NCBI GenBank assembly: GCA_905067555.1
Contig: CAJHIS010000001.1
Location: 8,611 to 72,610, forward strand
DNA: 64,000 nt
Reading direction: 5' to 3'
From: Candidatus Argoarchaeum ethanivorans
Lineage (GTDB): Archaea > Halobacteriota > Methanosarcinia > Methanosarcinales > EX4572-44
Of this stretch, positions 13,558-56,852 are shown one piece after another; positions within the stretch are counted from its first letter, which is position 1, and the number at the start of each line of letters is the position of its first letter. The notes below the pieces were generated by a model. That model ran no database searches, was not told where the DNA came from, and saw only the letters and a list, made by a program, of their open reading frames with translations. Position numbers and translations under genes: made by a program.

Positions 13558-14229
13558 ATGGCTAATGAAAAGAAGACAGACCTTCCGGAGAAAGGGGCAA
13601 TCTTACAGAGAGACCGGGAGACTTATGCGATAGCACCAGCTATACCAGCAGGTGTGGTCCCTCCCGATGTTTTAAGGAAGATTGCAGATGTCGCAGAGAA
13701 ATATGGTGCAGCCGCGATAAAGATCACGGGTGCACAGCGGATGGCAATCGTTGGACTTAAGGAAGAAGATATCGATTCTGCCTGGAACGATCTTGGGATG
13801 GACATGGGCGCAGCAATCGGATTATGCGTGCGAAGTGTGAAAACCTGTCCAGGGACGGCATTTTGTAAGCGCGGTGTTTCAGACAGCCTTGGTCTCGGCA
13901 TGGCTCTTAATGATGCGTATCACGGCATGAGTCTTCCTGCCAAGTTCAAGATTGGCGTGTCAGGATGTGCAAACTGCTGCGGTGAGTCATGGGTGAGAGA
14001 CATTGGCTTCTTTGGCTTCAGGAACGGATTTAAAGTAGTAGTCGGAGGAAACGCTGGCAGGAAGCCGAGAATCGCAAAGGAACTAACTTATGTTGAGTCA
14101 ATCGAGGATGCGATGAAAGTAACGCAGAGCGTGATTGATTACTACAAAGCAAACGCAAAGCAGAGGGAGCGGATCGGCGAATTCACTGACAGGATCGGGT
14201 TTGGGGAGTTTACGAAAAAAGTGCTCTGA
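13558..14229 (+). CDS. small siroheme-[4Fe-4S] sulfite/nitrite reductase family protein (low-molecular-weight aSiR-like)
   Basis: 223 aa with the Cys cluster CPGTAFC...GCANCCGE characteristic of the NiR/SiR siroheme-binding domain. Confidence 0.75.
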   Translation: MANEKKTDLPEKGAILQRDRETYAIAPAIPAGVVPPDVLRKIADVAEKYGAAAIKITGAQRMAIVGLKEEDIDSAWNDLGMDMGAAIGLCVRSVKTCPGTAFCKRGVSDSLGLGMALNDAYHGMSLPAKFKIGVSGCANCCGESWVRDIGFFGFRNGFKVVVGGNAGRKPRIAKELTYVESIEDAMKVTQSVIDYYKANAKQRERIGEFTDRIGFGEFTKKVL

Positions 14230-14359
14230 TAAAGGAGAAGGATGAAGGTCTTGATAAACCTCATGAGTCAAGAGTATACACTTCATTTCGGGAAAGAAGA
14301 TCAAGTAGATAATAGCTTAATTATGTGCTAAAGAGGCGATAAAAACGAATACTTGGAAA

Positions 14360-15280
14360 TTGAGTTGGACTTATGATAAAGCAAACTATCAACCAGGTAG
14401 TAATGGCATTATACGTTTCAATTTGGAAAATACTGGAGAGAATTATTTGTACATCTCAAAGTTGAGATTGCAATTCGATTGGCAGAAAAACAAATGCTAT
14501 TCAAAAGATTGTGCAATTCGAATTGAACCTAATTTTAGCAGCCATATTTTAGAGTTGCCCTTCATTATTCCAACAGATATAACGGGTATTTCTATTTATA
14601 GAATTGGTTATCATTTATGGGAATATGATTATTTGACTGAAAAATGGAATGATTTTAATGAACAATGGAGTAAGTGGGAATACTATGTCAAAGTCATACT
14701 TAGGCCTTATTATCGTGCTTTTGTTAGTAAAGGTCTTATACCGAAAGAACACCTAATTAATGATCCAATAATTGAAATAATAAAAGAATGGGGCTTTATT
14801 ACCAAAACCGTTGAAGAACCAGTAAATCCTGAAGATTTGGCTCCGATTATTAAAAAAGAAATTGGTAATTCAGAATGTCTAATTTTAATTGCCACTCCTC
14901 GCTTTAAAGATGCTTTAACTGGGTTATTTAAGATTTTTGATTGGGGGCATGGTGAAACTGGTATCGCTTTTGGAATGGATAAACCCCTGCTCATACTGAA
15001 AGATGAAAGAGTGGATTTAGGTGGGTTACCCTCGGCATTAAATTATCAAAATAATTTAATTAGTTTTGATATACTTAACATCCAAGACATAAGACAAAAG
15101 TTAGGTGGTACAATTCCTTCACTTAGAGGTTGGATAGAATCAATTAAACGACAGAAAGATCAAATAGCAGTAACAAAACAACGAGAAGAGTTTCGGGATA
15201 CAATAGAAAAAATAGCACTTGGAGTAGGAGGAGGATTACTACTTGGTGGAATTGCAGGATATTTGATTGGAAGGAAGTAA
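14360..15280 (+). CDS. membrane-anchored protein with TIR/NDT-like Rossmannoid domain
   Basis: 306 aa. The central region (YRAFVSKG...SECLILIATPRF...HGETGIAFGMDKPLLIL) fits the TIR-like/nucleoside-deoxyribosyltransferase-like pattern. It has a C-terminal TM helix and a TTG start in the track. It lies at the left edge of the AT-rich island. Confidence 0.5.
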   Translation: MSWTYDKANYQPGSNGIIRFNLENTGENYLYISKLRLQFDWQKNKCYSKDCAIRIEPNFSSHILELPFIIPTDITGISIYRIGYHLWEYDYLTEKWNDFNEQWSKWEYYVKVILRPYYRAFVSKGLIPKEHLINDPIIEIIKEWGFITKTVEEPVNPEDLAPIIKKEIGNSECLILIATPRFKDALTGLFKIFDWGHGETGIAFGMDKPLLILKDERVDLGGLPSALNYQNNLISFDILNIQDIRQKLGGTIPSLRGWIESIKRQKDQIAVTKQREEFRDTIEKIALGVGGGLLLGGIAGYLIGRK

Positions 15281-15392
15281 AGACCAACACCGATGATGCG
15301 CCGTTTTTCAAAACGGTGTGGATGGATCGGGGCTTTATAAGAGGCATGAGTTTATGTATGAGGAAAATAAAAACAAAAGAAGGTGAAAAAAT

Positions 15393-16061
15393 ATGAAAAA
15401 GAAAACCATAGTAGGCTTAATAGCTATGGTGGGAATTGCATCAGTTGTGATATTTGCGGGATGCATTGAGGTGGATTCATCAGTATTTACTCCTACACCA
15501 ACTCCACATGTAGTATCACCAGCATCATCTTTCGAAATTGAATATCCTATAACAGCATATTTTGTGATAAGAGGAGGGCATTTTCAAATAACATTTTATG
15601 AGGATGGTTCAGCACTTTCAAAAGAGAAACACGGAGAATTTGACATGGCATGGAGGATAAAGGAAAAGACAACTTCAAGATACAGACTTAAAATAGGAAC
15701 TGCTGATTCTGATCCTGATGTAATAATTCTCTCTAACCATGATGCAATACTTGACCTCGGAGATGATAATATTCGTGGCTATTGGAAAAAGGGAGAATCG
15801 ACAGCTTTCGAAATTGAATATCCTGTAACAGTGTATTTTAAGATACCTGCACCAATTCAAATAACATTATATGAAGATGGATCATCACTTTGTAAATCTG
15901 CTGATGATAAAGCATATTACGATGAATGGGTGATAGAGATAGACACAATTTCAAAAATTAAATATAGACTTCGTGGTGATGATGACTGCTTTGTGCTTTT
16001 CTCTAACCATGATGCAGTACTTGACCCCGGATCAGGTAATATTCTTGGCTATTGGAGATAA
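15393..16061 (+). CDS. lipoprotein-like protein with internal two-domain duplication
   Basis: Signal peptide plus Cys (VIFAGC). Two units of about 95 aa both start FEIEYP(I/V)T.YF and end SNHDA(I/V)LD(L/P)G..NI.GYW. Confidence 0.6.
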   Translation: MKKKTIVGLIAMVGIASVVIFAGCIEVDSSVFTPTPTPHVVSPASSFEIEYPITAYFVIRGGHFQITFYEDGSALSKEKHGEFDMAWRIKEKTTSRYRLKIGTADSDPDVIILSNHDAILDLGDDNIRGYWKKGESTAFEIEYPVTVYFKIPAPIQITLYEDGSSLCKSADDKAYYDEWVIEIDTISKIKYRLRGDDDCFVLFSNHDAVLDPGSGNILGYWR

Positions 16062-16378
16062 CAAATCAAAATTACAGAGAAAAGGAGGAGAAAAATAAAA
16101 AAGAGATTCGGGCAAAGGATTAGAGAGAAGATTAGAGGCCGATTTGGATTTGAAATAGATGAAATAAAATTCAAGGGCATAATGACAGAATTAAAACTTA
16201 AACCAAAAAGAAGACAAAAACAATAAATTTAGGGATGCCCCGCATTTTAGAGCTTGTCCCGTTAGCACTGTGGCGGGAAAAACGGATGCACCCGAATTAT
16301 TCGGGTGTGGAGTGGTTGAGGCTTAGAGGGATATTAATGCATGGATAAAAAAATAAGAAGAAAAGGAGGCGATATTGT

Positions 16379-16447
16379 ATGAGAAGCGGTTGGTTAGCCT
16401 TTGAAATCATACTACTTGTAGTTAGCGGGCTACTGTATATCTTATAG
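16379..16447 (+). CDS. possible 22-aa hydrophobic micro-protein
   Basis: ATG preceded by AAAGGAGG. It encodes MRSGWLAFEIILLVVSGLLYIL and sits directly upstream of the next TM protein gene. It is too short to validate. Confidence 0.25.
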   Translation: MRSGWLAFEIILLVVSGLLYIL

Positions 16448-16457
16448 GGGATTAAAA

Positions 16458-17111
16458 ATGCCATATAGTGACATGGTTAAAGCAATAATCATTTTTGTCG
16501 CAGGAATCATAGCAAGCGTTTTTGCACGAATTCTTTATGATTTGTGGAACCGCCCTAAAGTAAGATTTATAGATGATATAGATTCTGCAGGGCGGTGTTA
16601 TAGCATTTTTGTTGAAAATAAAGGAAGATCCGCGGCTATAAACTGTGAGGCAATGTTAACCCTACTAAATATAAATTTAGACGATATCATAGATGTAGAA
16701 GGCGCAACAGTGACTACCAACTCTCCTAGGAAAATAAAAGACATGAATTTATCTTGGGCTCGTAAGGATAATGAAGGTTGCTTAATTGCGATTACGATTT
16801 ATCCTGGTGCATGTCAACTACTTAACTTCTACGAAATAGAAAAGCCCGATTTACAAATCAAAATAGCATCAGAAAAAGGTTTGGATTCGCCAAGAGTGGT
16901 ATTAAAAAGCCACAAAGAGTATAAAGGGGAAATTAAAATATTTGCAGAAAATTTAAAACATAATCATAAAGAACACAAAAAAAAGTTTATTATCTCGAAA
17001 GCCACTGATGACGATGTGAAATTAAAATTTATTGACAATGAGAATGCGTTGAAAAGGCTATGGAAAGAGAGCGTTAAAAAAGTCCAGAAGGTGTACAGAA
17101 AGAAAAGGTAA
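16458..17111 (+). CDS. hypothetical N-terminally anchored protein
   Basis: 217 aa with an N-terminal TM helix and a Lys-rich C-terminus. No recognisable motif. Confidence 0.5.
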   Translation: MPYSDMVKAIIIFVAGIIASVFARILYDLWNRPKVRFIDDIDSAGRCYSIFVENKGRSAAINCEAMLTLLNINLDDIIDVEGATVTTNSPRKIKDMNLSWARKDNEGCLIAITIYPGACQLLNFYEIEKPDLQIKIASEKGLDSPRVVLKSHKEYKGEIKIFAENLKHNHKEHKKKFIISKATDDDVKLKFIDNENALKRLWKESVKKVQKVYRKKR

Positions 17112-17124
17112 GTCCAACCACCAG

Positions 17125-18886
17125 GGAGTCCCTGCACTTTAGAGCCTGTCCCATAATTAACATCGTTCCGATACTTTTATCACTCTTCCAGCCATATTAT
17201 GTAATATGGCGTTCATTAGAAGGCTCCACAATCAAAATTGGTTATTTCCCCCAAATATTTTGGATTTAATCGATGAAGACCATGTTTGTAGACTTGTTGA
17301 TGAAGTCATTGAAGGTATAGACTTTAACGAGATTGAGAAACGATATGATGGCCCTGGCAGTCCGGCGTATCATCCAAAGGTTATGATGAAGCTTCTTATT
17401 CAGGGTACTATCGATGGGATTCGGTCTTCTCGTAGGATTTCCAAGGCAACAAAGGAAAATGTTGTCTATATGTACCTTTCAGACCGATTAAATCCAGATT
17501 TTCGTACGATCTGTAGGTTTAGGAAGGATAATTTAGATGTTATTAAACTTGTTTTTGCCGAGATCATAAAGTTAGCTAGGGGAATGGACATGGTAAAACT
17601 TGGTCATTTGAGCATTGATGGTACGAAAATCAAAGCTTCAGCCTCGAATTTTAGTGTACTGTCAAAAGAAGAGCTTGACGAGATAAACGAGGCTATTGAC
17701 ACGGAACTTCAGAGAGGAATCGCTGTTGACGAGATGGAGGATGATATATATGGAAATGTTAATCCTGACACGCTTCCAAAGAGTTTTAAAGACGTTAAAG
17801 TGGAGATAAGAAAGAAAAAAACGAAGAAGATCGTAGATCAATACAGAAAAGGTGACCAAAAAGAGAGGAATAGAATCGAAAAACAACTTGATAAGGTTTA
17901 GAATGAATTTGTAACGTCAGAAAAAGATTTTTTGAGTTTTACCGATCCGGAAAGCAGATTCATGCCGAACAAGAAGCATTTCACCGAATTCTCGTACAAT
18001 CCACAGATAACGGTTGATGCTGAGCATGGAATAATCATTGCAGAGGATGTAGTCCAAAATGTCAGGGATGTAGATCAGTTAAAGCCTCAAATCGAACAGA
18101 TAGAGGAAGTTTTTGGTGAACTACCGGAAGACATGGTTGTAACTGCCGACAATGGTTACCATTCCTCAAAAAACATTGATTTTTTGAAACAACGCAATCC
18201 GGATGGATATATTCCCCACGAAAAACTTGCATCCAGGATGAAGAAGAAAGAAACGAAATCAAAGAGATTCAGCAAAGAAAATTTTGAATATAATACCAAA
18301 AAAGACGAATTCACCTGTCCAAATGGAGAAACCGTAAAATTCAGCTACGAATACTTCGATAAACACAAAGGGAAACAGGTAAGGGTTTATCGAGGAGTTG
18401 GGTGTGGCAGATGCCAGGATAAAAAGCTCTGCACAAAGAGCAATCATAAACCAAAGCTTATCAAATGTTACGGCAATGAGACTAACCTGCGGGAAATGGC
18501 TGAAAAAATGGAGTCAGCAGAAGGACAGGAGGTTTACCGTGTAAGATCGAAGACAGTAGAGAGCGTATTTGGGCATATCAAGCAAAACATCGGACTACGA
18601 GAGTTTTTAACGAGAGGTTTAGAAAACGTGAGAGCAGAATTCACCCTAACATGCATAGCACACAACATGAAGAGAATACTGAAAATAAAAAGCCAAATCA
18701 AGGATATTGAAGCGAATACTGTTGAAAATAGACGTCATAATCACACTTCATTCAAGAAACTATGCGAAAAACTAAGAAAACATGGTATAATCTCTTGTGT
18801 TCCATAAGCGAAAGTTTAAGACATAATCCAACTATTCAACACCATTGAACCCGGTTGTGGGACGGGCTCTGCAGAGCGGGGCATCC
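17125..18886 (+). mobile_element. IS1182-like (IS5 superfamily) insertion sequence, about 1.76 kb
   Basis: Imperfect terminal inverted repeats of about 32 bp: GGAGTCCCTGCACTTTAGAGCCTGTCCCATAA at 17125 versus the reverse complement of 18855-18886, GGATGCCCCGCTCTGCAGAGCCCGTCCCACAA (24/32 match). They enclose a transposase reading frame. Confidence 0.8.
17206..18807 (+). pseudogene. IS1182-family DDE transposase interrupted by a single in-frame TAG (17899-17901)
   Basis: The two track ORFs (17206-17901 and 17932-18807) are in the same frame with no other stop between them. The N-terminal part (YHPKVMMKLLIQG...ICRFRKDN) and the C-terminal part (DNGY..., ESVFGHIKQN...) are typical of IS1182/IS5 transposases. 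Confidence 0.75.
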
Positions 18887-19267
18887 TTGGTGTTGCATGA
18901 TATTTAAAGCTATTATTTTATAAAATACCCAATTGAAGTGCGGAAAGTGGGTGACATATTGTAATTCGTTGATATCAATATTCTATATAATATTGGTTTT
19001 ACTTGTATAACTCGATTTTCGGTGAAACGTAAATCACAGCCCAAAAGGTGTCACGCAAGTATGACACGTTCCACCCTTTCCAAACGTCTATTCTTCAATC
19101 GCGTCGTTATCATTGGTAATTCTACATGTGTTCTGTGACGATAAAAGGACCGGCTATTTCAATTCACCGAAAGTCAGGGTATAACACTTTCATTGGGAGT
19201 AGTTTTATGTAGAGATAGTCGGATATAATTAATAGTTAGGAGGAAAACACAAAAAGGGAGCAGAGCT

Positions 19268-19732
19268 ATGGCTGATATCATAAGCATAATGAGCGCTATT
19301 GTTGGTATTATCTCTCTTAGTATTGCAATTACCCAAACTATCAGACTATCTCATCTGCAAAAGCTTCGAGTCGGCAATCTTCGTGAGGCTCTTCAGAATT
19401 GTCGTCTTACTATGATCGAATCAGACCGTCTTTTGAATAATCGCGAAGAATATGATCTCGAAAACAAAGGAGCACTCATCAAGGTCCAAGCGATTCACTC
19501 GAATTCATGCGGGTTAATACGAGCAATCTTCCATGAATTGTCCCAAGTGGATACGCCTTATAATGAGCAGAAGCTCGAAGATTATATCTCACTGGATTTG
19601 ATAACAAGCAAGTGGCTTTGGAAGCAAGCGGCGTTATTCATTCCAACACAAGAACGCACGTTTGAGATTCCAGAACTCCCTGATGATACGCCGGACTATA
19701 TGGCCAAAGCTGGTAGAAGCAAAAAGGACTAG
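19268..19732 (+). CDS. hypothetical protein with N-terminal TM helix
   Basis: 154 aa, no motif recognised, ends with TAG. Confidence 0.45.
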   Translation: MADIISIMSAIVGIISLSIAITQTIRLSHLQKLRVGNLREALQNCRLTMIESDRLLNNREEYDLENKGALIKVQAIHSNSCGLIRAIFHELSQVDTPYNEQKLEDYISLDLITSKWLWKQAALFIPTQERTFEIPELPDDTPDYMAKAGRSKKD

Positions 19733-19824
19733 GGGGCTTGTGACCGTATCTTATGTGGCCGGTCATCTGGCCGATGTCAACGAGCGAATACAAATTTCTC
19801 CATGAATAATACTGAGGTGCACAC

Positions 19825-20259
19825 ATGAACGTAACCATTCGAGAAATCCGTTCTGAGGATTATGAAGCATCGATTAGGTTTTGGGAAAGCATTGACGAAA
19901 TTGAACTTGACGATTCAGAGGGAAAACAGGATTTTGAGTTCTTCCTGCGAAGAAACAAAGGTATGAGCTTCTTGGCTCTTGACAAAGAAGAAGTTATTGG
20001 AGCATGTTTGGCTAGTCACAACGGTAGACGCGGTTTCTTGGATCATTTGGCAATTGCCCCAAGCCATCGCAGAAAAGGACTGGGCAAGATGTTGGTTGAA
20101 AAATGCTTGAAAGTACTTCAAGCTGAAGGCATAAAGAGAAACTATGTCTTCTTGTTCAAGGAAAATGCTGAAGGTCGAGCATTTTGGGAGCATATCGGGT
20201 GGTCACAATGTGATGAATATGTTATGATGTCCATTCAACTCGATAGGAATACAAGATGA
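19825..20259 (+). CDS. GNAT family N-acetyltransferase
   Basis: 144 aa with the acetyl-CoA binding motif (LAIAPSHRRKGLGKMLVE). Confidence 0.8.
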   Translation: MNVTIREIRSEDYEASIRFWESIDEIELDDSEGKQDFEFFLRRNKGMSFLALDKEEVIGACLASHNGRRGFLDHLAIAPSHRRKGLGKMLVEKCLKVLQAEGIKRNYVFLFKENAEGRAFWEHIGWSQCDEYVMMSIQLDRNTR

Positions 20260-20410
20260 AAGGAATGCCGAGTAACCACGCACAGTTCTTTCAGTTCCCA
20301 GTCACCGACCCCGTTTTCGAAAAACGGGGCATCAAGTAGGATGCTTTGTGGGTGTTACCTCTTGGGAAACATTGGGATCAGGTGCCTTGAGCAACAGATT
20401 TAATTTTTCT

Positions 20411-21886
20411 CTACATATTATTTAAATTTTTGCATATTTCATTCTTAACAGAATCAAAACTGAAATTATACAACTTTTCAGAATCAGATTTACTAATGGC
20501 TATTCCTTTGTGTACGAAATCATTCCTTTTTTTCTTGTAACGGTTTAAAAATTCATATTTTTTGTTATCAATTTTTCCTAAAAAACTTAAAAATTCAATT
20601 TTAGTCGCGATTGACCAATTATCATATTTGTCAGCCTTTTTATTTTGTCCATACATCTCATTTTTTTCAGAGATAACTTCGGCAAATAATCGTGGTATTA
20701 AATTCTCTACAATGAACCAACTAAAAAGAAATGATTGAGAAAATTCTAAACTTTTTAAATGTGTATAACTGTCAAGTAAGAAAAGTACTAAATCGTTCAA
20801 TTTTTTATCACTATATATAATTTCGGCAGTTTTTATAATTTCATTCATTTTATCAAGAGGAATCACAGTCTTTCTATATCCTTTAAAATTCATTGGTTTA
20901 AATCTTTGATTAGCTGAATTCCAACTGCATCCGCCTATTGAATCACCCAAAACTGGAATGTTTTGTTTTATTTTAGAACTGATAAGTCCAGATTCTCGCA
21001 CTGATAACGATTCAATTCCTAAGATAAGAGAAATTCCGAAAATAGTGTTTATTATTTTAATCGCACTCTCTTCATCTTCTATTTGAATCACTACAAATCC
21101 ATATTTATCATAAAAACCCTTTCGGCCATCAAATGTGAATTCAAATTCATATTTTGGATATTCAACAATATTCGGGCCATACAACTTTTCTTTAAAACTA
21201 ATCTCAATATCGTTTCCTATAAAAACGCCTGGATAATAATAGGCACCAATTACACCCACTAATGATCTATCATGTGTTATTGATTGAGAACTTGGCTTTT
21301 GAATCACGGTTTCATTTCGAATCAAAGCTCTCCGCTTTGCATATTGAAATGATTCAATCATCTTTTGTTCGAAATAACCTAATTCTGCAACATTTCCTTT
21401 GAAATTAGCAACCCAACCATTATTAAAAAATGCGCTACCATATCTCAATCCATTTCTAAAATTTGTTAAAGGATAATTTCTCATAATATCTAAGAAATTT
21501 GAGAAATGCAGAACAAAATAATCTGAATATTTATTCATTTGATTCTCATCATGGTACCAACGAAAATCGTCCTCTTGATTGGTGATTTCTTTTTCCCATC
21601 TCGGTTCGTCCATAATTTTTATTACTTCTTCCTCAAGTTCAAAACCTTTAAAAGGACCATTAATTTTAATTTCTTTATCTGGTCTATCAGAATCATGTAG
21701 AAAAACTAAAAGCTGACACTCATGGGGTTCTGAAACCCAGAAAATTTCAATTTGGCATGGAGCTGAATAGTTACTGTAATCCAAAATTTGTTTTTGTTCT
21801 AATTCATTCAGTTTTTCATATTCTTTCCTAAAAGTATCAATAAGATTCTGACCCCATTTTTCGAGTTCTTGTACTTTTTTATGCAT
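20411..21886 (-). CDS. HEPN-domain protein (Abi-like), large unknown N-terminal domain
   Basis: 491 aa and very AT-rich. The C-terminal helical region ends with KKRNDFVHKG, an Rx4H HEPN RNase motif. Confidence 0.55.
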   Translation of the reverse strand: MHKKVQELEKWGQNLIDTFRKEYEKLNELEQKQILDYSNYSAPCQIEIFWVSEPHECQLLVFLHDSDRPDKEIKINGPFKGFELEEEVIKIMDEPRWEKEITNQEDDFRWYHDENQMNKYSDYFVLHFSNFLDIMRNYPLTNFRNGLRYGSAFFNNGWVANFKGNVAELGYFEQKMIESFQYAKRRALIRNETVIQKPSSQSITHDRSLVGVIGAYYYPGVFIGNDIEISFKEKLYGPNIVEYPKYEFEFTFDGRKGFYDKYGFVVIQIEDEESAIKIINTIFGISLILGIESLSVRESGLISSKIKQNIPVLGDSIGGCSWNSANQRFKPMNFKGYRKTVIPLDKMNEIIKTAEIIYSDKKLNDLVLFLLDSYTHLKSLEFSQSFLFSWFIVENLIPRLFAEVISEKNEMYGQNKKADKYDNWSIATKIEFLSFLGKIDNKKYEFLNRYKKKRNDFVHKGIAISKSDSEKLYNFSFDSVKNEICKNLNNM

Positions 21887-21893
21887 TAACCCC

Positions 21894-22979
21894 CTATGTA
21901 AGCCCCAGCCGTTTCTCTATATTAACCCTCGATCTTTCTTCCTTCTGACGAAGCGTTCGCTCTATCGAATCATGCCCCTTTTCATCAACTTCCGCACTCT
22001 CTATCAATTCTTTATCAATAAGTTTCTGATACAACTGCCTGCCTTTTTCTGTGCGTGTAATGACTGTTGACCATCCCTTGGGTGAGCCTTCGCTGCCAAC
22101 TGAAATGTCTGCATAGACCGAAGTAAAATCAGGGCATACACTGCATCCAGCCCTGGTATATTTATCCAGCTCTTCATGAGTGATGATCTTCTTTTTACCA
22201 TCTTTAAAGGAGATAATCATCCCCTCTTTCTTAACATCGAAGCCTGCAACACCTGCTTTATCTATGTCTATACTCTGGAGTATCTGGTCATCGAACTGTC
22301 CTTTACAGAATAGCCCTACTGCAAAGGTGATGATATTATGTGGTATTAGCATATTACGTCTGTTGTATATTGCCTGCGTTTTGCGTAGCGCATATATCTG
22401 GCAGGGAGTGCCTACAATTGCAAGTCTTTCATAACCTTTATCTTTCAATTTTTTGAGGTCTGTGAGTGGCGAGTAGATTGAAGATACTGTGTAACGTGAA
22501 CCTGCAGCACTCAGAAGATCTTCTTCTGTTGCTGCTACTACCGGCACCGGGGCACAGTTTTCATTGTATTGAGAGACTACTACTCCATCCACAAGATTAT
22601 TATCAAGTAGATATTTGAATATTGTTGTTACTACTCCACCATCCTGGCACACATCTTTTATCGGCTGGTAGGTGGTGCGTGCTGCTTTTGGTTTACCATC
22701 GTACTTCGCTCTTTCAAGCTCCTTTTTCTGCCAGAAGTAGGATGGTTCTATGCGTGGGCAGGACATTACACAAATATTGCAATCATTGCATGCAAGGCCA
22801 CTTCTTGATTCGATCTCACTCCTCTTTTGCGTATCCTGCACTGGCTTGTTATCTACGATAGAAATATATTGCAGGGGGCATACTGCTGCACAGTTCCCAC
22901 ATGAAACACATATATCAGCATCAATAACTTCTTTTAATAATTGGTCATAACCATTCATCATTCTACTAAAAAAGTACAC
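21894..22979 (-). CDS. coenzyme F420 hydrogenase/dehydrogenase beta-subunit family protein with N-terminal 2x[4Fe-4S]
   Basis: Two ferredoxin Cys motifs (CVSCGNCAAVCP, CNDCNICVMSCP) followed by an FrhB/FdhB-like body. Confidence 0.7.
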   Translation of the reverse strand: MYFFSRMMNGYDQLLKEVIDADICVSCGNCAAVCPLQYISIVDNKPVQDTQKRSEIESRSGLACNDCNICVMSCPRIEPSYFWQKKELERAKYDGKPKAARTTYQPIKDVCQDGGVVTTIFKYLLDNNLVDGVVVSQYNENCAPVPVVAATEEDLLSAAGSRYTVSSIYSPLTDLKKLKDKGYERLAIVGTPCQIYALRKTQAIYNRRNMLIPHNIITFAVGLFCKGQFDDQILQSIDIDKAGVAGFDVKKEGMIISFKDGKKKIITHEELDKYTRAGCSVCPDFTSVYADISVGSEGSPKGWSTVITRTEKGRQLYQKLIDKELIESAEVDEKGHDSIERTLRQKEERSRVNIEKRLGLT

Positions 22980-45922: not shown

Positions 45923-45995
45923 TAGCCCGGACAGGATTCGAACCTGTGTCGCAAGGTCCAGGGCCTTGCATGATTGACCCCTACACTACCGGGCT
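45923..45995 (-). tRNA. tRNA-Gln (anticodon CUG)
   Basis: 73-nt cloverleaf: acceptor AGCCCGG/CCGGGCU with A1:U72, T-arm ACAGG-UUCGAAU-CCUGU, and anticodon arm CAAGG-CCCUGGA-CCUUG. No encoded CCA. Confidence 0.85.
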
Positions 45996-47314: not shown

Positions 47315-48121
47315 TTGGAGTTAAGTATGTCAGAAATTGGAAAAAATATTAGACTTGAGAGAATAATGGATCGAGAGAGCAGAAATATGGTAATCATCCC
47401 GATGGACCACGGTATTTCCATAGGTCCTGTTGCTGGTATTGTGAACCTGCCAGAGGCTGTTAACAAGGCAGCAGAAGGCGGCGCCAATGCTGTTCTCATG
47501 CAGAAAGGAATGGCAAAACATGGACATCGTGGGTATGGGCAGGACATAGGACTTATTATCCACATGAGTGCCTCAACAAGTCGTGCACCAGATCCTAATG
47601 ACAAAGTACAGGTGTGCACTGTCGAAGAAGCAATAAAACTCGGAGCAGATGCTGTTAGCGTTCATATTAACATTGGCTCTGAAACAGAATCCAAACAGCT
47701 TCGGAAACTCGGGATGGTCGCAGAAAGCTGTGATGCATGGGGAATGCCTTTAATTGCCATGATGTACCCTCGCGGGAAAAACGTCACAAACCAGAACGAT
47801 TCCGAACTCGTAGCACATGTTGCACGCGCCGGGGCAGAGCTTGGGGCAGACATTATCAAAACAAACTACACAGGCGACCCTGACAGCTTTAAAGACGTTG
47901 TTGCAGGATGCCCGGTTCCAGTGGTAATGGCTGGAGGACCAAAGGCAAACACTGACAGAGAGTTTCTTGAAATGGTGGCAGGTGCAATGAAAGGTGGTGC
48001 ACGCGGTGTCGCCATCGGGAGAAACGTGTTCCAGCATAAAAACCCAGCCGCAATGACCCGTGCTCTTACAAAAATAGTTCACAAAAGCACCACGGTAGAC
48101 AAAGCAATGGAGGAACTTTAA
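47315..48121 (+). CDS. class I aldolase family, ADH synthase (AroA')-like
   Basis: 268 aa DhnA/FbaB-type aldolase ([14 protein letters not shown]), directly followed by dehydroquinate synthase II. Confidence 0.75.
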
Positions 48122-48293
48122 GTGAAATACATCTGGATAAATTCAAACCCGTATCGCTTTGCGATGCGGAGATGCAAAGCAATGGAGGAACTTCATTGTG
48201 AAACACCTTTGGATAAATTCAAACCCGTATCGCTTTGCGATGCGGAAATACAAAGCAATGGAGGAACTTCATTGTGAAACACCTTTGGATAAA
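48100..48293. repeat. three copies of the aroA'/aroB' junction (about 42 bp) separated by two identical 33-bp hairpin inserts
   Basis: Junction copies at 48100-48141, 48175-48217 and 48251-48293. The inserts at 48142-48174 and 48218-48250 carry CCGTATCGC-TTT-GCGATGCGG. Confidence 0.9.
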
Positions 48294-49401: not shown

Positions 49402-49595
49402 GAGCTTGTTAGCTTTCGGAATATTGGGGGAAAATAAGAAATCCTCCAGACTTAATCTTCGATAATGTGAAGTCAGAGGATTTATATGCGAAGTGAGTTT
49501 GGATATAACGCCAATTTGAGTTGATATACGAACTTGAGTTTGGATAGATCTGAGTTGAGTAGAATGGCGGTTTGGACATTCATGAGGCGAATAAC

Positions 49596-50423
49596 ATGAG
49601 TAAGACAGAACATAAATTATATATCGGCAATGCTAAGCAAGAACTGCTTAATATAACGAATAATAGCATTCAATTAATTGTCACATCTCCACCTTATTGG
49701 AATGCACGAAATTATGAACATTCACAACAAATTGGCTTTAACGATACTTATGAAGAATATCTTAAGGCACTGGGACAGATATTTGAAGAGTGCGTAAGAG
49801 TACTTTTACCTGACGGAAAAATTGCATTGAATATCGGAAACATTTATAACAAAGATAATATCGAAAAAAGAACATATACGGTGAATCTAGTACTAGATTT
49901 ATGGAAAATTTTAAGTGAGTTTAAAGTGTTGAGATATATGGGTACGATTTTCTGGAAAAAAACCACTTCACGTAATGGAGCAGTTCTATTTGGAAGTTAT
50001 CCATATCCATCTAATTTTATGATTTCTACAGCATTGGAACCTATTCATGTCTTCAGGAAGATAGGTAAAAGAAAAATCCCCAAAGAGGTAAAAGAAAAAT
50101 CACGTATTTCAAAGGCAGAATTCAGAGAACTTAGAGAGCCAATTTGGTACTTAAATGGAACTAGTAAAAAGGCGCATCCAGCAGTATTCCCTAATGAGTT
50201 GCCTCATAGGCTGATTAAAATGTATTCTTTTTATGGTGATATTGTGTTGGATCCCTTTTGTGGCATCGGAACTGCAAATGTGGAGGCTCTTAGATTAGGT
50301 AGAGATTCTATAGGAATAGATGTAAGAGAAGATTATGTTGAAACAACAGTATCAAATTTAAAGAGAATAAAGGAACCTGCAGCCATATCGATATTTAATC
50401 ACGGAGAGGATATTTATGAGTAA
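49596..50423 (+). CDS. DNA methyltransferase, beta-class N4-cytosine/N6-adenine (SPPY motif)
   Basis: Motif IV VTSPPYW lies upstream of motif I LDPFCGIGT, which is the beta permutation. The ATG at 49596 is preferred over the track TTG at 49572. Confidence 0.85.
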   Translation: MSKTEHKLYIGNAKQELLNITNNSIQLIVTSPPYWNARNYEHSQQIGFNDTYEEYLKALGQIFEECVRVLLPDGKIALNIGNIYNKDNIEKRTYTVNLVLDLWKILSEFKVLRYMGTIFWKKTTSRNGAVLFGSYPYPSNFMISTALEPIHVFRKIGKRKIPKEVKEKSRISKAEFRELREPIWYLNGTSKKAHPAVFPNELPHRLIKMYSFYGDIVLDPFCGIGTANVEALRLGRDSIGIDVREDYVETTVSNLKRIKEPAAISIFNHGEDIYE

Positions 50424-51003
50424 CGATGAAATACCTAAAATAAAAACCATGGTAAGGCGATATAAATCTTCACTCCCAAAATTAACTATATTTATATTGG
50501 GTCCCGGTGAACATAACATCGATCCATATGCAAAGAAATGTTATAGCAAACGGTGTCAGATTAAAAATGAACTCGCACGCGACCATGATACCTTTTTTCT
50601 CGAAGAGATATATAACGAAGCAAGAAATGATGGAGTAGATGTTACCAATACACTTGACTTTGAAGATATTCTAATAAAAAAAGAGGCCGATACCGTCATT
50701 ATGATTTTTGTTCTAAATGCTACGGGACTTGAAGCAGAGCTAGTAGCATTTTCACGATGTCCAGAATTAGCAGAAAAAATGTGGGTATTTTACGATAGCA
50801 CTTACTACGAATTTGGTAATAAAAATTTTTGGCATGTTAATAGTGCTTTAGACTCAATAGAGGGACGTAATGGTAGAATTAAACCATTTACGGAAAGTGA
50901 GATTGATTCATGTTCATTATTAACAAGAGTTAAGAACATGATAGAGCAAAAGAGGAGGGCTCTTTCTATATTACCATACAAGAAGTATCAGGGGGTTGAG
51001 TAA
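50416..51003 (+). CDS. nucleoside 2-deoxyribosyltransferase-like (NDT/TIR-assemblage) protein
   Basis: 195 aa. IFILGPG (compare iYlAGP) and ADTVIMIFVLNATGLEAELVAF (compare aD.vva.......G...ElG.A) are present. It overlaps the MTase stop by 8 nt. Confidence 0.5.
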   Translation: MSNDEIPKIKTMVRRYKSSLPKLTIFILGPGEHNIDPYAKKCYSKRCQIKNELARDHDTFFLEEIYNEARNDGVDVTNTLDFEDILIKKEADTVIMIFVLNATGLEAELVAFSRCPELAEKMWVFYDSTYYEFGNKNFWHVNSALDSIEGRNGRIKPFTESEIDSCSLLTRVKNMIEQKRRALSILPYKKYQGVE

Positions 51004-53766
51004 ATGGTAGCTACAAGCAGTATAAAAAACATTTGGAAACTTCTGGAAAGATTTAAGGATGAATCAACCCTATTGATGAATGAGGATAATTTAGTAGTTC
51101 TTATTTATATTACCAAGCATGAGGGAATTGGGGTAGATGATTTAATAAAAAAATTAGATAAGCACATCATCCATGTAAAAGATAACGTAGTATTTTTGAA
51201 ATCTAACAGATTCATTATAGGAAAAAATAGTTTGATCTATGCTACCGAGAAGGGGGAAGAGATGGTTGACATAATTGAATATTCACAATATAAAATTGAC
51301 GATGTTCCAAAAGATATAATTTTGGGATATACTTTAGAAAAACCACCGTTAGGCATTGGTTCTACATCTTTTACCTTTAAAGCAGAAAGAAAGAAGATAA
51401 AAAATAAGGTCATAAAAATATTCAAACCTGGAATATTTGACCACATAGATTTTGACAAGAAAATAGAGGCATTACAACCGCTATCAAATCTCACCAATTT
51501 AGTTTTACCTGATGATTACGGGGATTTTGAATGGAATGATAGGGAATTTAGATATATTGTGATGAAATATATTAAAGGAAGAACTTTGAATGAGTTTCTT
51601 AATGAGAAAGTAGATATAGACTTAAGAAAGTTTATAGATAATTTTTTAAAAGAAGTAGGAAAAACGTTAGAAAAAGTAGAGAAATCAGGTTTAAATCATG
51701 GTGACCTTCACTCAAATAACATTTTAGTAGTTGAAGACGAGTTAGAAAAAGGCAAGAAGATATGCCACTTTCACATAATAGATTTCATGGGCATCAAATC
51801 AAACGAGGAATTCCGTGAATTTGAGCTTTCAGATTTTGAATATTTCAAACAACATCTCCTAAAAATAGTAAAAGTATATGCTTCTACTCCATCGGGAAAA
51901 CCTGATTTGAAAAAGTTGGGGGATAGATTTTACTACATAGTACAAAATCTGCAAAACGGAGAATATCATTCATTTAAGGATTTATTTGACGCACTTTCTG
52001 CGAAACTCCCTCCTCCTTCAAAATTAGGTAATATAAAGGAGCCACCGTTTAGTTTTATCAGATTTGAACAATACGACATTAATGATCCTCTGTGGCTTAG
52101 AAGGTTTGAAGTTGAGAATGCTTTGTATGCACCTATCAAACGATTTGACAATGTAATATGCTCAGGTCCAAGAGGATGTGGTAAGACTATTTACTTGAGG
52201 TCTTTAACTTTCGTTCCAAGATTAGTAAAATCAATCCAGAATGGGCCAGATAAATATCCTGAGGTGAAAGATAAGGTTGCATTTTTTGATAACATCTTCG
52301 GCATTTATTTTGCTTGCAGACAGGGAGAGTTTAAGTATTTCTCTGAAAAATACTTTAGATTTACACCTAAAACACAACTACTTATCAAACACATAATTGC
52401 GCTAAGAATCATTAAGAGGACGCTAAATTTAATAAACGATGGTTACACGGAGAGGGTACTATCGAGCGAGCCAAAAATAGAGTCAATCTTGAAATTTTTG
52501 ACTCAATATCTAAAGAGGGATCTTATGATGACTCCTGAAGCAAAAGAAAGACCATTTGAACAGTTGGATGGCATATTAAGCATTGAAGAAAACTATTGTG
52601 AAAGTATATTAGGTGAAGATGAGAATTATCCAGATATTAGCAAGATGTTAAATGAGCATTTATTAATTGATTTTTTCAGTGGTTTAAAAAATTCTGTTTC
52701 TGAGCTATCTAACATAAAATTTTATGTTATTTTTGATGATGTAAGCGATCCTCAGGTTCCTTTTGAATGCCAAAAAATTATCAATTCGTTTATGTCATGC
52801 CTTAACGAAATATATTGCTGTAAATTTTCAACAGAAAAATTTGCCTACACCTATGAAGATATGTCTGGTAAAACTTTGCAACCTACCAATGATTATACAT
52901 ATATGGACCTATCCTTCATGGGAGCGCCTGGGGATAGATACACTGATAAAATCTACAAACAATATTTAGGGAAGATAATTAATAAGCGCCTTGAAATAGC
53001 TAATCATAAACAGAATATCAATGGACTTTTAGGAAATTCGCCAGATTCTGCACAGAAATTGATAACTTTGCTCTCTGAATGCGCCAAGGGAAATCGAGAT
53101 GTATATAATAAAATTAAATTTGCTGGATGGGACTTGGTTATTCAGTTGTCTTCGAGGAGCGTGAGAGATGCTATTGCTATATGTGATTCAATCTTTAGAG
53201 AATGCGAAACTAAAAAAAATCTATCTGATGAAATAAAAGAAGGAAAAACAAAAATGCCAATAGAGATTCAGGATAGAGCCATTAGAAAACATTCTCTAGA
53301 AGAGTACAGGAGCTTACTGAATATTACATATCATGGTAGAGAAATCTTTAATATCGTTAGAAATTTTGGCGAAATATCTCGCAAGTATTTGGAGAAAGAG
53401 ATAACTAACGAGGAAGGCAGGAAATACGAAATGATTACAATAGAAAGGATCGATGCTAAAGAAATATCAGAAGATGCAAAAAAAATATTTAGAACATTAA
53501 TCCGTTATTCTGTTTTTTTAGATAGAGGTCTTTGTTTTTCCAGAGAGGAAATAGGATTGGTTCAAAAAATTACACTGCATAAAAAGTTTACACCGGCCCT
53601 GATGACAACTTACCGTGAAAGAGAGCATCTTCGATTATCAAAGGATAGATTAGAAAAATTCATTTTACATCCCGATGAATTTAGGCAGGAACTTATAACA
53701 GGGAAAAAAATAGATAAGCATCAATTAGAAATCTTTGATTTTTTAGAAGGTGATAGAAATGAGTAG
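51004..53766 (+). CDS. wHTH + atypical (RIO/Bud32-like) protein kinase + P-loop NTPase fusion protein
   Basis: 920 aa. Kinase motifs are GIGSTSFTF, VIKIFK, HGDLHSNNILV and IIDFMG. Walker A is GPRGCGKT and Walker B is FYVIFDDVSD. The ATG directly abuts the previous TAA. Confidence 0.65.
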   Translation: MVATSSIKNIWKLLERFKDESTLLMNEDNLVVLIYITKHEGIGVDDLIKKLDKHIIHVKDNVVFLKSNRFIIGKNSLIYATEKGEEMVDIIEYSQYKIDDVPKDIILGYTLEKPPLGIGSTSFTFKAERKKIKNKVIKIFKPGIFDHIDFDKKIEALQPLSNLTNLVLPDDYGDFEWNDREFRYIVMKYIKGRTLNEFLNEKVDIDLRKFIDNFLKEVGKTLEKVEKSGLNHGDLHSNNILVVEDELEKGKKICHFHIIDFMGIKSNEEFREFELSDFEYFKQHLLKIVKVYASTPSGKPDLKKLGDRFYYIVQNLQNGEYHSFKDLFDALSAKLPPPSKLGNIKEPPFSFIRFEQYDINDPLWLRRFEVENALYAPIKRFDNVICSGPRGCGKTIYLRSLTFVPRLVKSIQNGPDKYPEVKDKVAFFDNIFGIYFACRQGEFKYFSEKYFRFTPKTQLLIKHIIALRIIKRTLNLINDGYTERVLSSEPKIESILKFLTQYLKRDLMMTPEAKERPFEQLDGILSIEENYCESILGEDENYPDISKMLNEHLLIDFFSGLKNSVSELSNIKFYVIFDDVSDPQVPFECQKIINSFMSCLNEIYCCKFSTEKFAYTYEDMSGKTLQPTNDYTYMDLSFMGAPGDRYTDKIYKQYLGKIINKRLEIANHKQNINGLLGNSPDSAQKLITLLSECAKGNRDVYNKIKFAGWDLVIQLSSRSVRDAIAICDSIFRECETKKNLSDEIKEGKTKMPIEIQDRAIRKHSLEEYRSLLNITYHGREIFNIVRNFGEISRKYLEKEITNEEGRKYEMITIERIDAKEISEDAKKIFRTLIRYSVFLDRGLCFSREEIGLVQKITLHKKFTPALMTTYREREHLRLSKDRLEKFILHPDEFRQELITGKKIDKHQLEIFDFLEGDRNE

Positions 53767-55178: not shown

Positions 55179-55337
55179 ATGGCAATACGAACCTTTACCG
55201 CGGTTCTCCACAAGGAAGAAGATCTATACGTAGCAGAATGCCCTGAAGTTGGGATGGTTAGCCAGGGATACACTATCGAGGAAGCCATCGCCAATCTGAA
55301 AGAAGCGACAGAACTCTATCCGGTTTTGATGCCATAG
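55179..55337 (+). CDS. small HicB/UPF0150-like antitoxin
   Basis: 52 aa: MAIRTFTAVLHKEEDLYVAECPEVGMVSQGYTIEEAIANLKEATELY.... It is below the ORF-track length cut-off. Confidence 0.6.
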   Translation: MAIRTFTAVLHKEEDLYVAECPEVGMVSQGYTIEEAIANLKEATELYPVLMP

Positions 55338-55340
55338 TGT

Positions 55341-55560
55341 ATGCCTAAGTTGCGCAGGATATCAGGAAAAGAAGCCGTGCGTGCACTGACGCTTGGGCTT
55401 ATAGAGAGTGCGGCAACGCGGCAGCCACGTGGTGCTCAAGAAGCAAACGTCAGATGGCGCTCGGATGCGTGGTTCTTCTACGTGAGCTGGCGATAGGCAC
55501 GTTAAGGGGCATTCTACGGTAAGTCAGGATAACACCCCTGACGAGTTTAGGGAGAACCTC
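55341..55560 (+). pseudogene. decayed hicA toxin gene
   Basis: MPKLRRISGKEAVRAL is in one frame, QRGSHVVLKKQTSDG in a second, and VVLLRELAIGTLRGILR*VRITPDEFRENL in a third with an internal TAA. That makes at least two frameshifts plus a nonsense codon. Confidence 0.7.
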
Positions 55561-55665: not shown

Positions 55666-55926
55666 ATGGATAAGGCTCGTATACTTGAAGAGTTGAAAAG
55701 GAACTCAAAGAAGATTCGTTTTAAGAGGCTATGCACGGTCGCTGAGGTTTTTGGGTTTAGATTTAAAGGCGGAAGGGGCAGCCATCGTATTTATGTGCGA
55801 GATGGAATAGATGAAATGTTAAATTTTCAAAATGTAAGTGGTAAGGTAAAACCTTATCAAGTAAAACAACTTATAAAGATTATTGAAAAGTATAACCTCT
55901 TAAAGGAAGATGAAAGAGATGTATAA
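55666..55926 (+). CDS. hicA: HicA-family mRNA interferase toxin
   Basis: 86 aa with a GGRGSHRIY motif, overlapping the downstream antitoxin gene. Confidence 0.8.
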   Translation: MDKARILEELKRNSKKIRFKRLCTVAEVFGFRFKGGRGSHRIYVRDGIDEMLNFQNVSGKVKPYQVKQLIKIIEKYNLLKEDERDV

Positions 55927-56179
55927 GTACGCAATAGAGATATTCCACAGCGAAGAAGACGAGGGGTCTATCGCGGTGGTACCGGAATTACCGGGATGCA
56001 CAGCGTTCGGAGAAAACGAAGAAAAGGCATTGGAAGAGATAAAAATAGCTATGGAACTGTGGATAGAGACTGCGAAAAAAGAGGGAAGAAATATACCACA
56101 ACCTCATGGAAAAGAGATTCTAAAGCTAATCTATGAGAATGCCTTTCGCACCACACACCCTGGTGGGGCTGGCGCATAA
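55910..56179 (+). CDS. hicB: HicB-family antitoxin
   Basis: 89 aa with EDEGSIAVVPELPGCTAFGENEEKALEEIKIAMELWIE. Confidence 0.8.
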   Translation: MKEMYKYAIEIFHSEEDEGSIAVVPELPGCTAFGENEEKALEEIKIAMELWIETAKKEGRNIPQPHGKEILKLIYENAFRTTHPGGAGA

Positions 56180-56645: not shown

Positions 56646-56689
56646 GATACGCAATATCTGGAATTATGGAAATGCAAAAATATTTTAAG

Positions 56690-56762
56690 TGCTCCGATCG
56701 GGATTTGAACCCGAGTCCTCGGCTCGAAAGGCCGAAATGATTGGCCGCTACACTATCGGAGC
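56690..56762 (-). tRNA. tRNA-Glu (anticodon UUC)
   Basis: Acceptor GCUCCGA/UCGGAGC, anticodon arm UCGGC-CUUUCGA-GCCGA and T-loop UUCAAAU. Confidence 0.9.
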
Positions 56763-56779
56763 GCTGAAGCATTTTCCAG

Positions 56780-56852
56780 TAGTCCCGGGCGGATTCGAAC
56801 CGCCGTCGCCGGCTCCAAAGGCCGGCAGGATTGACCACTACCCTACAGGACT
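56780..56852 (-). tRNA. tRNA-Gln (anticodon UUG)
   Basis: Acceptor AGUCCUG/CGGGACU with A1:U72, anticodon arm CCGGC-CUUUGGA-GCCGG and T-loop UUCGAAU. Confidence 0.9.

Follow-up and report, generated by a model that had tools for sequence, protein, structure and literature searches.

An ORC/Cdc6-like kinase–ATPase with a tandem-CARF partner in Candidatus Argoarchaeum ethanivorans, part of a candidate methylation-linked defence cassette

PglW of the type 2 bacteriophage exclusion (BREX) system joins a kinase, winged-helix modules and a STAND/ORC-Cdc6-like P-loop domain within a methyltransferase-centred system, and a role as a "sensory hub" has been proposed for it (PMC12839542). It is 1400-1600 amino acids (aa) long and carries a NERD nuclease, a pseudokinase as well as a kinase, and three winged helices; its ATPase domain is inactive, without Walker motifs and lid, and its partners are PglX, PglZ, BrxC, BrxD, and BrxHI (PMC12839542). 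Here we describe a 920-aa protein, hereafter the kinase–ATPase, that is encoded in a 64,000-nucleotide stretch of Candidatus Argoarchaeum ethanivorans (contig CAJHIS010000001.1; the whole stretch is called the window). PglW is the closest characterised analogue of this protein. As in PglW, a kinase, winged helices, and an ORC-like P-loop domain stand in one chain that is linked to a methyltransferase. In contrast to PglW, the ATPase motifs of the window protein are intact, the other PglW domains and the BREX partner genes are not in its cassette, and a protein with tandem CARF domains is the partner instead.

The architecture is already catalogued computationally, as Pfam PF24389 ("ORC-CDC6-like") and as PADLOC PDLC01925 ("CARF6--CARF_STK_AAA"), and the impression that it was an unrecognised one, formed in an earlier reading of the sequence only, did not hold. 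In the databases, the four proteins of the cassette are named only "hypothetical", "protein kinase", or "ORC-CDC6 family AAA ATPase". The PADLOC "CARF6" model names reportedly go back to a CARF/SAVED census published by Makarova et al. in 2020. Like the window cassette, PDLC01925 combines a Ser/Thr-kinase-like domain, an AAA+ ATPase, and CARF, all of them in a single polypeptide (a 1187-position profile). Positions 337-762 of this profile aligned with the window ATPase (1.4e-14) and positions 934-1185 with the CARF gene next to it (2.4e-9), and in a Methanoperedens relative the alignment ran across kinase and ATPase (8.8e-31). In contrast to the modelled form, CARF is a separate gene in the window and the window kinase part does not align to the profile. 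Extra parts in the Argoarchaeum clade are an N-terminal winged helix and a gene for an N-glycosidase resembling nucleoside deoxyribosyltransferases (NDT), and the methyltransferase partner is not in the PADLOC model name. By these alignments, the window locus is a split relative of CARF6--CARF_STK_AAA with extra parts, not a member as modelled. Literature searches returned only a 2026 survey of BREX and no experimental work on the fused (PDLC01925) or the split form.

The kinase–ATPase gene is an open reading frame (ORF) of 920 codons that runs from an ATG without interruption (51004-53766, plus strand). The probability of 920 stop-free codons at the ORF's own composition (32% G+C) is ~2e-36, and an identical protein has been deposited for Candidatus Argoarchaeum ethanivorans as "hypothetical protein" and "protein kinase domain-containing protein", indicating that the protein is real. 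Every motif quoted in the sequence-only reading was found at its place. The kinase part contains GIGSTSFTF (aa 117-125), VIKIFK with K138, HGDLHSNNILV (aa 232-242), and IIDFMG (aa 258-263), and the ATPase part contains Walker A GPRGCGKT (aa 388-395) and FYVIFDDVSD with Walker B (aa 573-582); SSRSVRDAIAICD corresponds to aa 716-728. In an alignment of 35 homologues with 20-79% identity, the invariant residues were G117, G119, K138, H232, D234, H236, N239, D260, F261, and G263 in the kinase and G388, R390, G391, G393, K394, D578, D579, and S717 in the ATPase and its lid. An AlphaFold2 (AF2) model built on the homologue alignment had a mean predicted local distance difference test score (pLDDT) of 81.8. 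This model and the profile searches bear out the fusion of winged helix, kinase, and P-loop NTPase that had been read from the letters, and we are close to certain that the architecture consists of an N-terminal winged helix, a minimal kinase, an ORC/Cdc6-like AAA+ module with lid, and a C-terminal winged helix.

Structure prediction followed by Foldseek, which had been suggested as a check, came out in favour of the kinase assignment. The segment folds kinase-like, and the PknB kinase domain led the matches of the model in PDB (E 3e-7, probability 1.0, TMt 0.6-0.67). A profile of the kinase–ATPase family matched ULK1 (1e-20) and CK2 (~1e-13) among PDB sequences. With Pfam, Pkinase reached 29.5 bits (6.2e-7), under its gathering score of 31.7, and PK_Tyr_Ser-Thr reached 24.2 bits, above its cut-off of 23.1; ABC1, Kdo, EcKL, APH, and RIO1 matched weakly, and NCBIfam Bud32 matched at ~1e-7. 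The Gly loop, K138, and the catalytic loop (consensus HGDLHxxN) were also kept in relatives of ~20% identity and in a stand-alone Bradyrhizobium kinase, and the metal-binding motif was DF(I/M)G across the homologues. An APE motif was searched for in the domain and is absent, as are an activation segment and a lower C-lobe; only ~70 residues of helices follow DF(M)G in the AF2 model. Because it lacks an activation segment, the domain is not a canonical eukaryotic protein kinase. In size, this minimal kinase corresponds to Bud32/RIO, and all its catalytic residues are kept. With its missing APE, its size, and its HGDLHxxN loop, the label first given to it, RIO/Bud32/APH-like without APE, was a fair one.

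In PADLOC, the kinase domain matched defence kinases best, namely the single-gene kinase PD-T4-6 (Stk2-like; 5.9e-11) and mad6 (1.1e-25, for the Methanoperedens relative), and these matches covered only the part from the N-lobe through the catalytic loop. MADS, to which MAD6 belongs, is likewise linked to methylation, going by the NCBIfam NF047741 name. Identity with MAD6 was rejected, as the kinase–ATPase scored 17.2 bits with NF047741 against a cut-off of 460, and the partners and architecture of PD-T4-6 and MAD6 are unlike those of the window cassette.

As for the ATPase, PF24389 matched aa 374-681 at 3e-28 (99.4 bits, cut-off 27) and gave 86-160 bits in relatives. Walker A (GPRGCGKT) and Walker B (FYVIFDD) are intact, and the sensor-1 region is KFST. 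In the AF2 model, a helical insert of ~130 aa lies between ATPase strands 2 and 3 (strand 431-437, helices 455-564, strand 572-578); both the ORC-type helical insert and a C-terminal winged helix (810-899) are thus predicted in the kinase–ATPase. An ATPase-only profile gave a single weak match among PDB sequences, to Rad17 (E 0.002). Of the earlier designation "ORC/STAND-like", the ORC part is upheld by the PF24389 match, whereas a STAND (NACHT/NB-ARC) identity was unsupported, with one sub-threshold AAA_16 match in a single relative. The motif SSRSVRD in the region after the core had been taken for a possible sensor or arginine finger. In the Rad17 profile alignment, the family's "SSgdiR" falls on "SGDIRSAIN" of Rad17. 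Judged by this alignment, LSSRSVRDAIAIC appears to occupy the sensor-2 "GDxR" position of clamp-loader/ORC-type AAA+ lids and not the arginine-finger position, so that the sensor half of the proposal was retained and the arginine-finger half was dropped.

Both ends of the protein were modelled as winged helices. At the N-terminus, residues 7-93 form a bundle of three helices plus a beta hairpin (helices 7-16, 27-37, 44-51, 58-67, and 82-93; strands 71-74 and 77-80). The phrog_11046 "transcriptional regulator" profile matched aa 23-99 of the window protein (4.5e-5), and the N-terminal segments of the homologues gave recurrent sub-threshold matches to HTH_45 (9.5e-5) and MarR (5.5e-4). The model and these weak but recurrent matches agree with the winged helix-turn-helix (wHTH)-like segment already noticed in the sequence. 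The domain is missing in a distant clade of relatives, where the kinase begins at about residue 25. The C-terminal domain contains strands 810-815, 838-845, 852-858, and 874-878 and helices 823-834, 860-866, and 880-899, with E814, P864, T869, R873, and P890 invariant; a Pfam scan gave no match for it.

The kinase–ATPase gene is the third of four genes in a cassette, after those of a DNA methyltransferase and a 195-aa N-glycosidase and before that of the tandem-CARF protein. The methyltransferase stop overlaps the start of the 195-aa gene (ATGAGTAA), the next two genes abut (TAAATG, 51001-51006), and the kinase–ATPase stop overlaps the tandem-CARF start (ATGAGTAG). The same 8-nt overlap, ATGAGTA(A/G), is thus present at two of the three junctions (50416-50423 and 53759-53766), and for this reason the tandem-CARF gene probably starts at ATG 53759 rather than at the mechanically called GTG 53750. 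For the methyltransferase gene, the mechanical ORF starts at TTG 49572 and the first ATG is at 49596. Its translation has TSPPYW ahead of DPFCGIGT; since the SPPY motif precedes the FxGxG motif, the motif order suggests that the enzyme may make N4-methylcytosine. No restriction nuclease accompanies it in the cassette. The intergenic region immediately upstream of the methyltransferase gene contains two copies of a perfect 12-nt direct repeat, TGAGTTTGGATA, 41 nt apart (49494-49505 and 49535-49546). The repeat may be an operator that, for instance, the kinase–ATPase could bind with its N-terminal winged helix.

The cassette lies in an island of 5.6 kb (from ~49400 to ~55000) with a G+C content of 29-39%, compared with 44-50% in the flanks, and the boundaries are sharp. 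The upstream flank carries archaeal housekeeping genes for a Pab1020-type RNA ligase, a DeoC-family aldolase, and a type II 3-dehydroquinate synthase (DHQS II), and a HicA/HicB pair, two tRNAs, and futalosine-pathway, HAD, and HD genes are located downstream. A search for att-like repeats around the island gave only short local repeats and no flanking pair. No integrase was found near the island; tRNA-Glu(TTC) and tRNA-Gln(TTG) stand back to back ~1.9 kb downstream (56689-56852, minus strand), and a tRNA-Gln(CTG) is located upstream (45923-45995, minus strand).

The 195-aa protein matched the NCBIfam retron St85 family effector (2.6e-7) and PADLOC NDT_II-A (2.5e-7), both weakly. When a profile of 18 members of its family (A3) was compared with PDB, the retron Ec86/Eco1 effector was found (7v9x_C, 1.1e-5), and the invariant E108 of the family aligned with a Glu that is Ala in entry 8qbl. 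The retron-Eco1 effector hydrolyses NAD(P)+ (PMC12673091). With an NDT-like fold and an aligned catalytic Glu in common with that effector, the 195-aa protein is predicted to be a toxic effector. It differs in that the match is weak (1e-5), the DNA-binding domain at the C-terminus is lacking (195 versus 307 aa), and the cassette has neither reverse transcriptase nor multicopy single-stranded DNA (msDNA). Pfam PF28093 is listed in the precomputed annotation of most close homologues of the 195-aa protein (P0119-P0132).

The 355-aa product of the fourth gene matched PADLOC "CARF6--CARF_CARF_CARF" at 1.3e-27, and a Pfam scan gave no match. Its AF2 model (pLDDT 91.5, predicted TM-score (pTM) 0.92) shows two Rossmann-like (CARF-like) domains in tandem. 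The top Foldseek match in PDB was Can1 (6sce_A, 5.5e-6, TMq 0.49), followed by Can2, the CARF domains of Csm6, the ring nucleases Sso2081 and Sis0455, Csa3, and Cam1; the probability was 1.0 for Can1, Can2, Csm6, Csa3, and the Crn1-type ring nucleases. A tandem-CARF profile found nothing among PDB sequences; the matches in PDB came from structure comparison only. The loops FIDISGMAN and ITPQCSKLQ are conserved and of CARF type. As in Can1, two CARF domains in one chain form a pseudo-dimer; in contrast to Can1, the 355-aa protein has no nuclease domains and no CRISPR linkage, and the sequence identity is 8%. A conceptual parallel only is offered by RtcR, a CRISPR-independent CARF–AAA+–HTH regulator of the sigma-54 enhancer-binding type, in which CARF input controls an AAA+ ATPase with a DNA-binding HTH; its AAA+ module belongs to a different clade, and it has no kinase and no methyltransferase partner.

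The tandem-CARF family is large, with 1,550 representative clusters when the threshold is E ≤ 1e-3 and 876 when it is E ≤ 1e-10, and some members match PF19810 HFX_2341_N or CARF_Card1. The HFX_2341_N domain derives from a Csa3-like haloarchaeal regulator (PMC11434293). In two metagenomic proteins, the tandem-CARF module is the N-terminal fusion partner of another domain, a histidine kinase (HisKA/HATPase_c) in P0231 and a calcineurin-like metallophosphoesterase in P0165. These fusions suggest that CARF-type sensing may feed two-component signalling. Since the N-terminal place in a histidine kinase is that of the input domain, the tandem CARF would be an input-type module. The kinase–ATPase had been singled out as the obvious sensor/switch candidate of the operon. 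Its part as a switch is plausible; because of the histidine-kinase fusion, the small-molecule sensor is more likely the neighbouring tandem-CARF protein, with the kinase–ATPase as switch and output.

Close homologues of the kinase–ATPase, with 42-79% identity, were found in archaea and bacteria, including Promethearchaeota, Patescibacteria, and WOR-3. Every contig of sufficient length with a close homologue had the four-gene cassette, and the gene order was kept in all except one (L011), in which a weakly related methyltransferase gene (24% identity) sits downstream on the opposite strand. This order was seen in one WOR-3 and one Patescibacteria bacterium and in several metagenomic contigs; the neighbours were unrelated and mostly housekeeping genes. 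Methyltransferase orthologues with 54-70% identity occupied the matching position in five loci (L001, L009, L013, L014, and L016). The ORFs of 18 bacterial and archaeal loci were compared all against all (Table 1), and no further conserved gene was found among them.

Table 1. Features of the cassette in the window and gene families recurring in the compared loci
Feature	Position in window	Strand	Loci	Basis
Kinase–ATPase gene: wHTH–kinase–ORC/Cdc6-like AAA+–wHTH	51004..53766	+		ORF, profiles, AF2 model
N-terminal winged helix-turn-helix, aa 1-95	51004..51288	+		AF2 model, weak profile matches
Minimal protein-kinase-like domain, aa ~105-335	51316..52008	+		Pfam, Foldseek, conserved catalytic residues
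AAA+ ATPase core, aa ~375-640	52126..52923	+		Pfam PF24389, PADLOC PDLC01925, AF2 model
Helical lid region incl. LSSRSVRDAIAIC, aa ~649-800	52948..53403	+		AF2 helices
C-terminal winged-helix-like domain, aa ~805-900	53416..53703	+		AF2 model
Beta-class N6_N4 DNA methyltransferase, SPPY-type	49596..50423	+		Pfam N6_N4_Mtase 3.7e-42, PADLOC MTase_II 5e-62
Nucleoside-deoxyribosyltransferase-like N-glycosidase, 195 aa	50416..51003	+		NCBIfam retron St85 family effector, PADLOC NDT_II-A
Tandem-CARF protein, 355 aa	53759..54817	+		PADLOC, AF2 model, Foldseek
Kinase–ATPase family			18/18	All-against-all ORF comparison
Tandem-CARF family			18/18, adjacent to kinase–ATPase gene	All-against-all ORF comparison
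Beta-class methyltransferase family			8/18	All-against-all ORF comparison
Other methyltransferase family			6/18, upstream	All-against-all ORF comparison
N-glycosidase family			7/18 (8 by tblastn)	All-against-all ORF comparison

By tblastn, the N-glycosidase gene was detected in eight loci of the close clade and in none of the distant clade. The distant clade (~20-24% identity; Bacteroidota, Pyrinomonadaceae, Methanoperedens, Nitrospira, and a metagenomic contig) retains methyltransferase, kinase–ATPase, and tandem CARF, and lacks both the N-terminal winged helix and the N-glycosidase gene; its methyltransferase is a different and larger one (357-390 aa). On plasmid pBq66S1MBc of Bradyrhizobium quebecense, the order is methyltransferase, stand-alone 246-aa kinase, 652-aa ORC-like ATPase, and CARF, the last three genes all annotated as hypothetical. 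This split cassette (L017; plasmid NZ_CP088025.1, record 66379-75559) stands beside thyX, genes for a recombinase and an annotated restriction endonuclease, and two hypothetical genes, and its surroundings look like a small defence or mobile island on the plasmid. Decaying copies were seen in Halosimplex, with a split CARF gene and an IS1595 transposase immediately upstream of the ATPase gene, and in L013, where the CARF gene is fragmented. Apparent "kinase-less" variants were discounted, namely the IS1595-adjacent Halosimplex copy with its split CARF gene (L006) and a Thermoplasmatales copy cut by the contig end (L008).

The low G+C content and the patchy distribution across phyla indicate that the cassette has been horizontally transferred. 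No match to it was found in a phage genome collection, and IMG/VR gave only two, very distant pairs; there is thus no sign that it is phage-borne. Defence-type neighbours of the cassette loci comprised an MjaI-type restriction-modification pair, HNH and NucS-like nucleases, SIR2, MqsRA, and HicAB. The judgement that the protein is not a housekeeping one was supported by the low-G+C island and by the recurrence of the cassette in bacteria and archaea that are unrelated, at chromosomal sites that are likewise unrelated.

We interpret the cassette as a methylation-linked defence system against mobile elements and give this explanation as a whole, with the mechanism outlined here, a probability of roughly 0.55. 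A defence role as such is probable; the specific order of events is doubtful. In the proposed mechanism, the methyltransferase would mark host DNA as self, the winged helices and the AAA+ module would attach to DNA and serve as a switch driven by ATP or as an oligomerising scaffold, and the tandem-CARF protein would supply the input of a nucleotide-like ligand. Activation would then switch on the kinase as the output, because in the three-gene relatives it is the sole catalytic activity besides the methyltransferase and the ATPase; its targets could be host proteins, viral proteins, or partner proteins. In the Argoarchaeum clade, the N-glycosidase may have been added as an extra effector and the N-terminal winged helix as an extra DNA-binding or regulatory element, and activation would also release the N-glycosidase, with NAD+ depletion or nucleotide damage leading to growth arrest.

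Several points weigh against this interpretation. The cassette contains no nuclease, cyclase, or other signal generator, which leaves the CARF ligand unexplained and makes it the weakest link. The role of the methyltransferase could be regulatory rather than self-marking, and the literature searches found no experimental work supporting any step of the mechanism. In the kinase, the alpha-C glutamate has no conserved column, with an acidic residue at 151 or 152 in most sequences, and an APH/CotS-like small-molecule kinase would account equally well for the HGDLHxxN loop and the lack of a substrate-binding lobe. For the ATPase half no fold match was obtained, as kinase matches filled the whole-model Foldseek lists (PDB and viral). 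The sensor-2 residue R721 is clade-specific, being kept in 31 of 35 close relatives, and the distant clade has SGD-I-x-x instead. No arginine finger was found either: there is no invariant Arg between strands 4 and 5, where K623 is invariant.

The best structural matches of the CARF partner are all CARF proteins of type III systems that bind cyclic oligoadenylate (Can1, Can2, Csm6, Csa3, Crn1-type, and Cam1), PF19810 HFX_2341_N or CARF_Card1 is matched by some family members, and the PADLOC name of the family comes from a CARF census. These results would be explained if the cassette were an ancillary module of type III CRISPR, with the tandem CARF binding cyclic oligoadenylate made in trans by Cas10 and the kinase–ATPase being activated as a consequence. 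However, no cas10, other cas gene, or nucleotide cyclase was found among the Pfam-annotated neighbours within ~8 kb of 7 loci, and the 64-kb window has no CRISPR-like array and no cas gene among the large ORFs scanned. The recurrent partner is a DNA methyltransferase, not cas genes, and the cassette is also carried by a Patescibacteria genome and a rhizobial plasmid; we therefore regard this explanation as improbable. A circuit that is self-contained without a cyclase would result if the "kinase" were a small-molecule or nucleotide kinase (APH-, CotS-, or choline-kinase-like) that makes or modifies the CARF ligand. Such an enzyme would be in keeping with its HGDLHxxN loop, with the lack of an activation segment and of a substrate-binding C-lobe, with the weak ABC1, Kdo, EcKL, APH, and RIO1 matches, and with a three-gene core that encodes no other signal generator. 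We consider it unlikely, since the strongest matches are the protein kinases ULK1 (1e-20), CK2, and PknB and the defence kinases PD-T4-6 and mad6, and since Bud32 and RIO, truncated alike, act on proteins or as ATPases.

Outside defence, the cassette could be a module for epigenetic or replication control, where phosphorylation and methylation would tune an ORC-like initiator or regulator that governs a replicon or gene expression. The ORC/Cdc6-like AAA+ module with terminal winged helices does recall archaeal origin-binding proteins, the N-terminal domain resembles transcriptional regulators, and the methyltransferase is an orphan with no restriction nuclease. In contrast, the cassette is present in bacteria, which to our knowledge do not use ORC/Cdc6 initiators, and it occupies unrelated chromosomal sites beside housekeeping genes, with no integrase or replicon genes. 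The signs of horizontal transfer (low G+C content and patchy cross-phylum distribution), the NADase-type toxin homologue carried in the Argoarchaeum clade, and the degraded copies (disrupted by an insertion sequence in Halosimplex, with a fragmented CARF gene in L013) also argue against such a module, and we judge it quite improbable. A somewhat unlikely variant is CARF signalling that is independent of CRISPR and of any cyclase: a nucleotide derived from infection, or made by the kinase or, in the Argoarchaeum clade, by the N-glycosidase, would let the CARF protein gate a methylation-checking ORC-like ATPase, with phosphorylation as the response.

Further observations were made elsewhere in the window. 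At the edge of the island, an intact HicA (55666-55926) and a HicB-like gene (55910-56179) are present, and the region just upstream of the intact HicA (55180-55540) contains a remnant HicB-like reading that begins with MAIRTFTAVLHKEEDLYVAECPEVG, followed by a degenerate HicA-like stretch, suggesting that the HicAB locus is duplicated and decaying. A 76-nt tandem repeat (2.6 copies, 92% matches) at 48099-48293 covers the last part of the DeoC-family aldolase gene and the first part of the 3-dehydroquinate synthase II ORF. Another tandem repeat, of 141 nt (3.5 copies, 91% matches), occupies 167-665 within the minus-strand ORF 106-966, which probably encodes a repeat-containing protein. More stretches of low G+C content (33-37%) occur at 14000-22000, together with a DDE transposase (17932-18807) and two ORFs without a Pfam match (14360-15280, plus strand, and 20411-21886, minus strand); the region may have been acquired as well.

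CARF domains are understood almost wholly as receptors for the cyclic oligoadenylates of type III CRISPR systems. Here, a widespread tandem-CARF family is partnered by a kinase–AAA+ protein and usually by a DNA methyltransferase, with no cyclase in sight. The ligand and the output of the cassette could turn out to involve a second messenger, or a way of reading DNA methylation, that is new, and the cassette could show a use of Ser/Thr-type phosphorylation in prokaryotic, including archaeal, immunity. It could also give a function to PF24389 and to a PADLOC model set that are only names at present, and its size of three or four genes makes it experimentally tractable. If signalling without a cyclase proved true, it would represent a new logic of prokaryotic immunity, in which epigenetic self-marking, second-messenger sensing, and a kinase output are combined in three or four genes.

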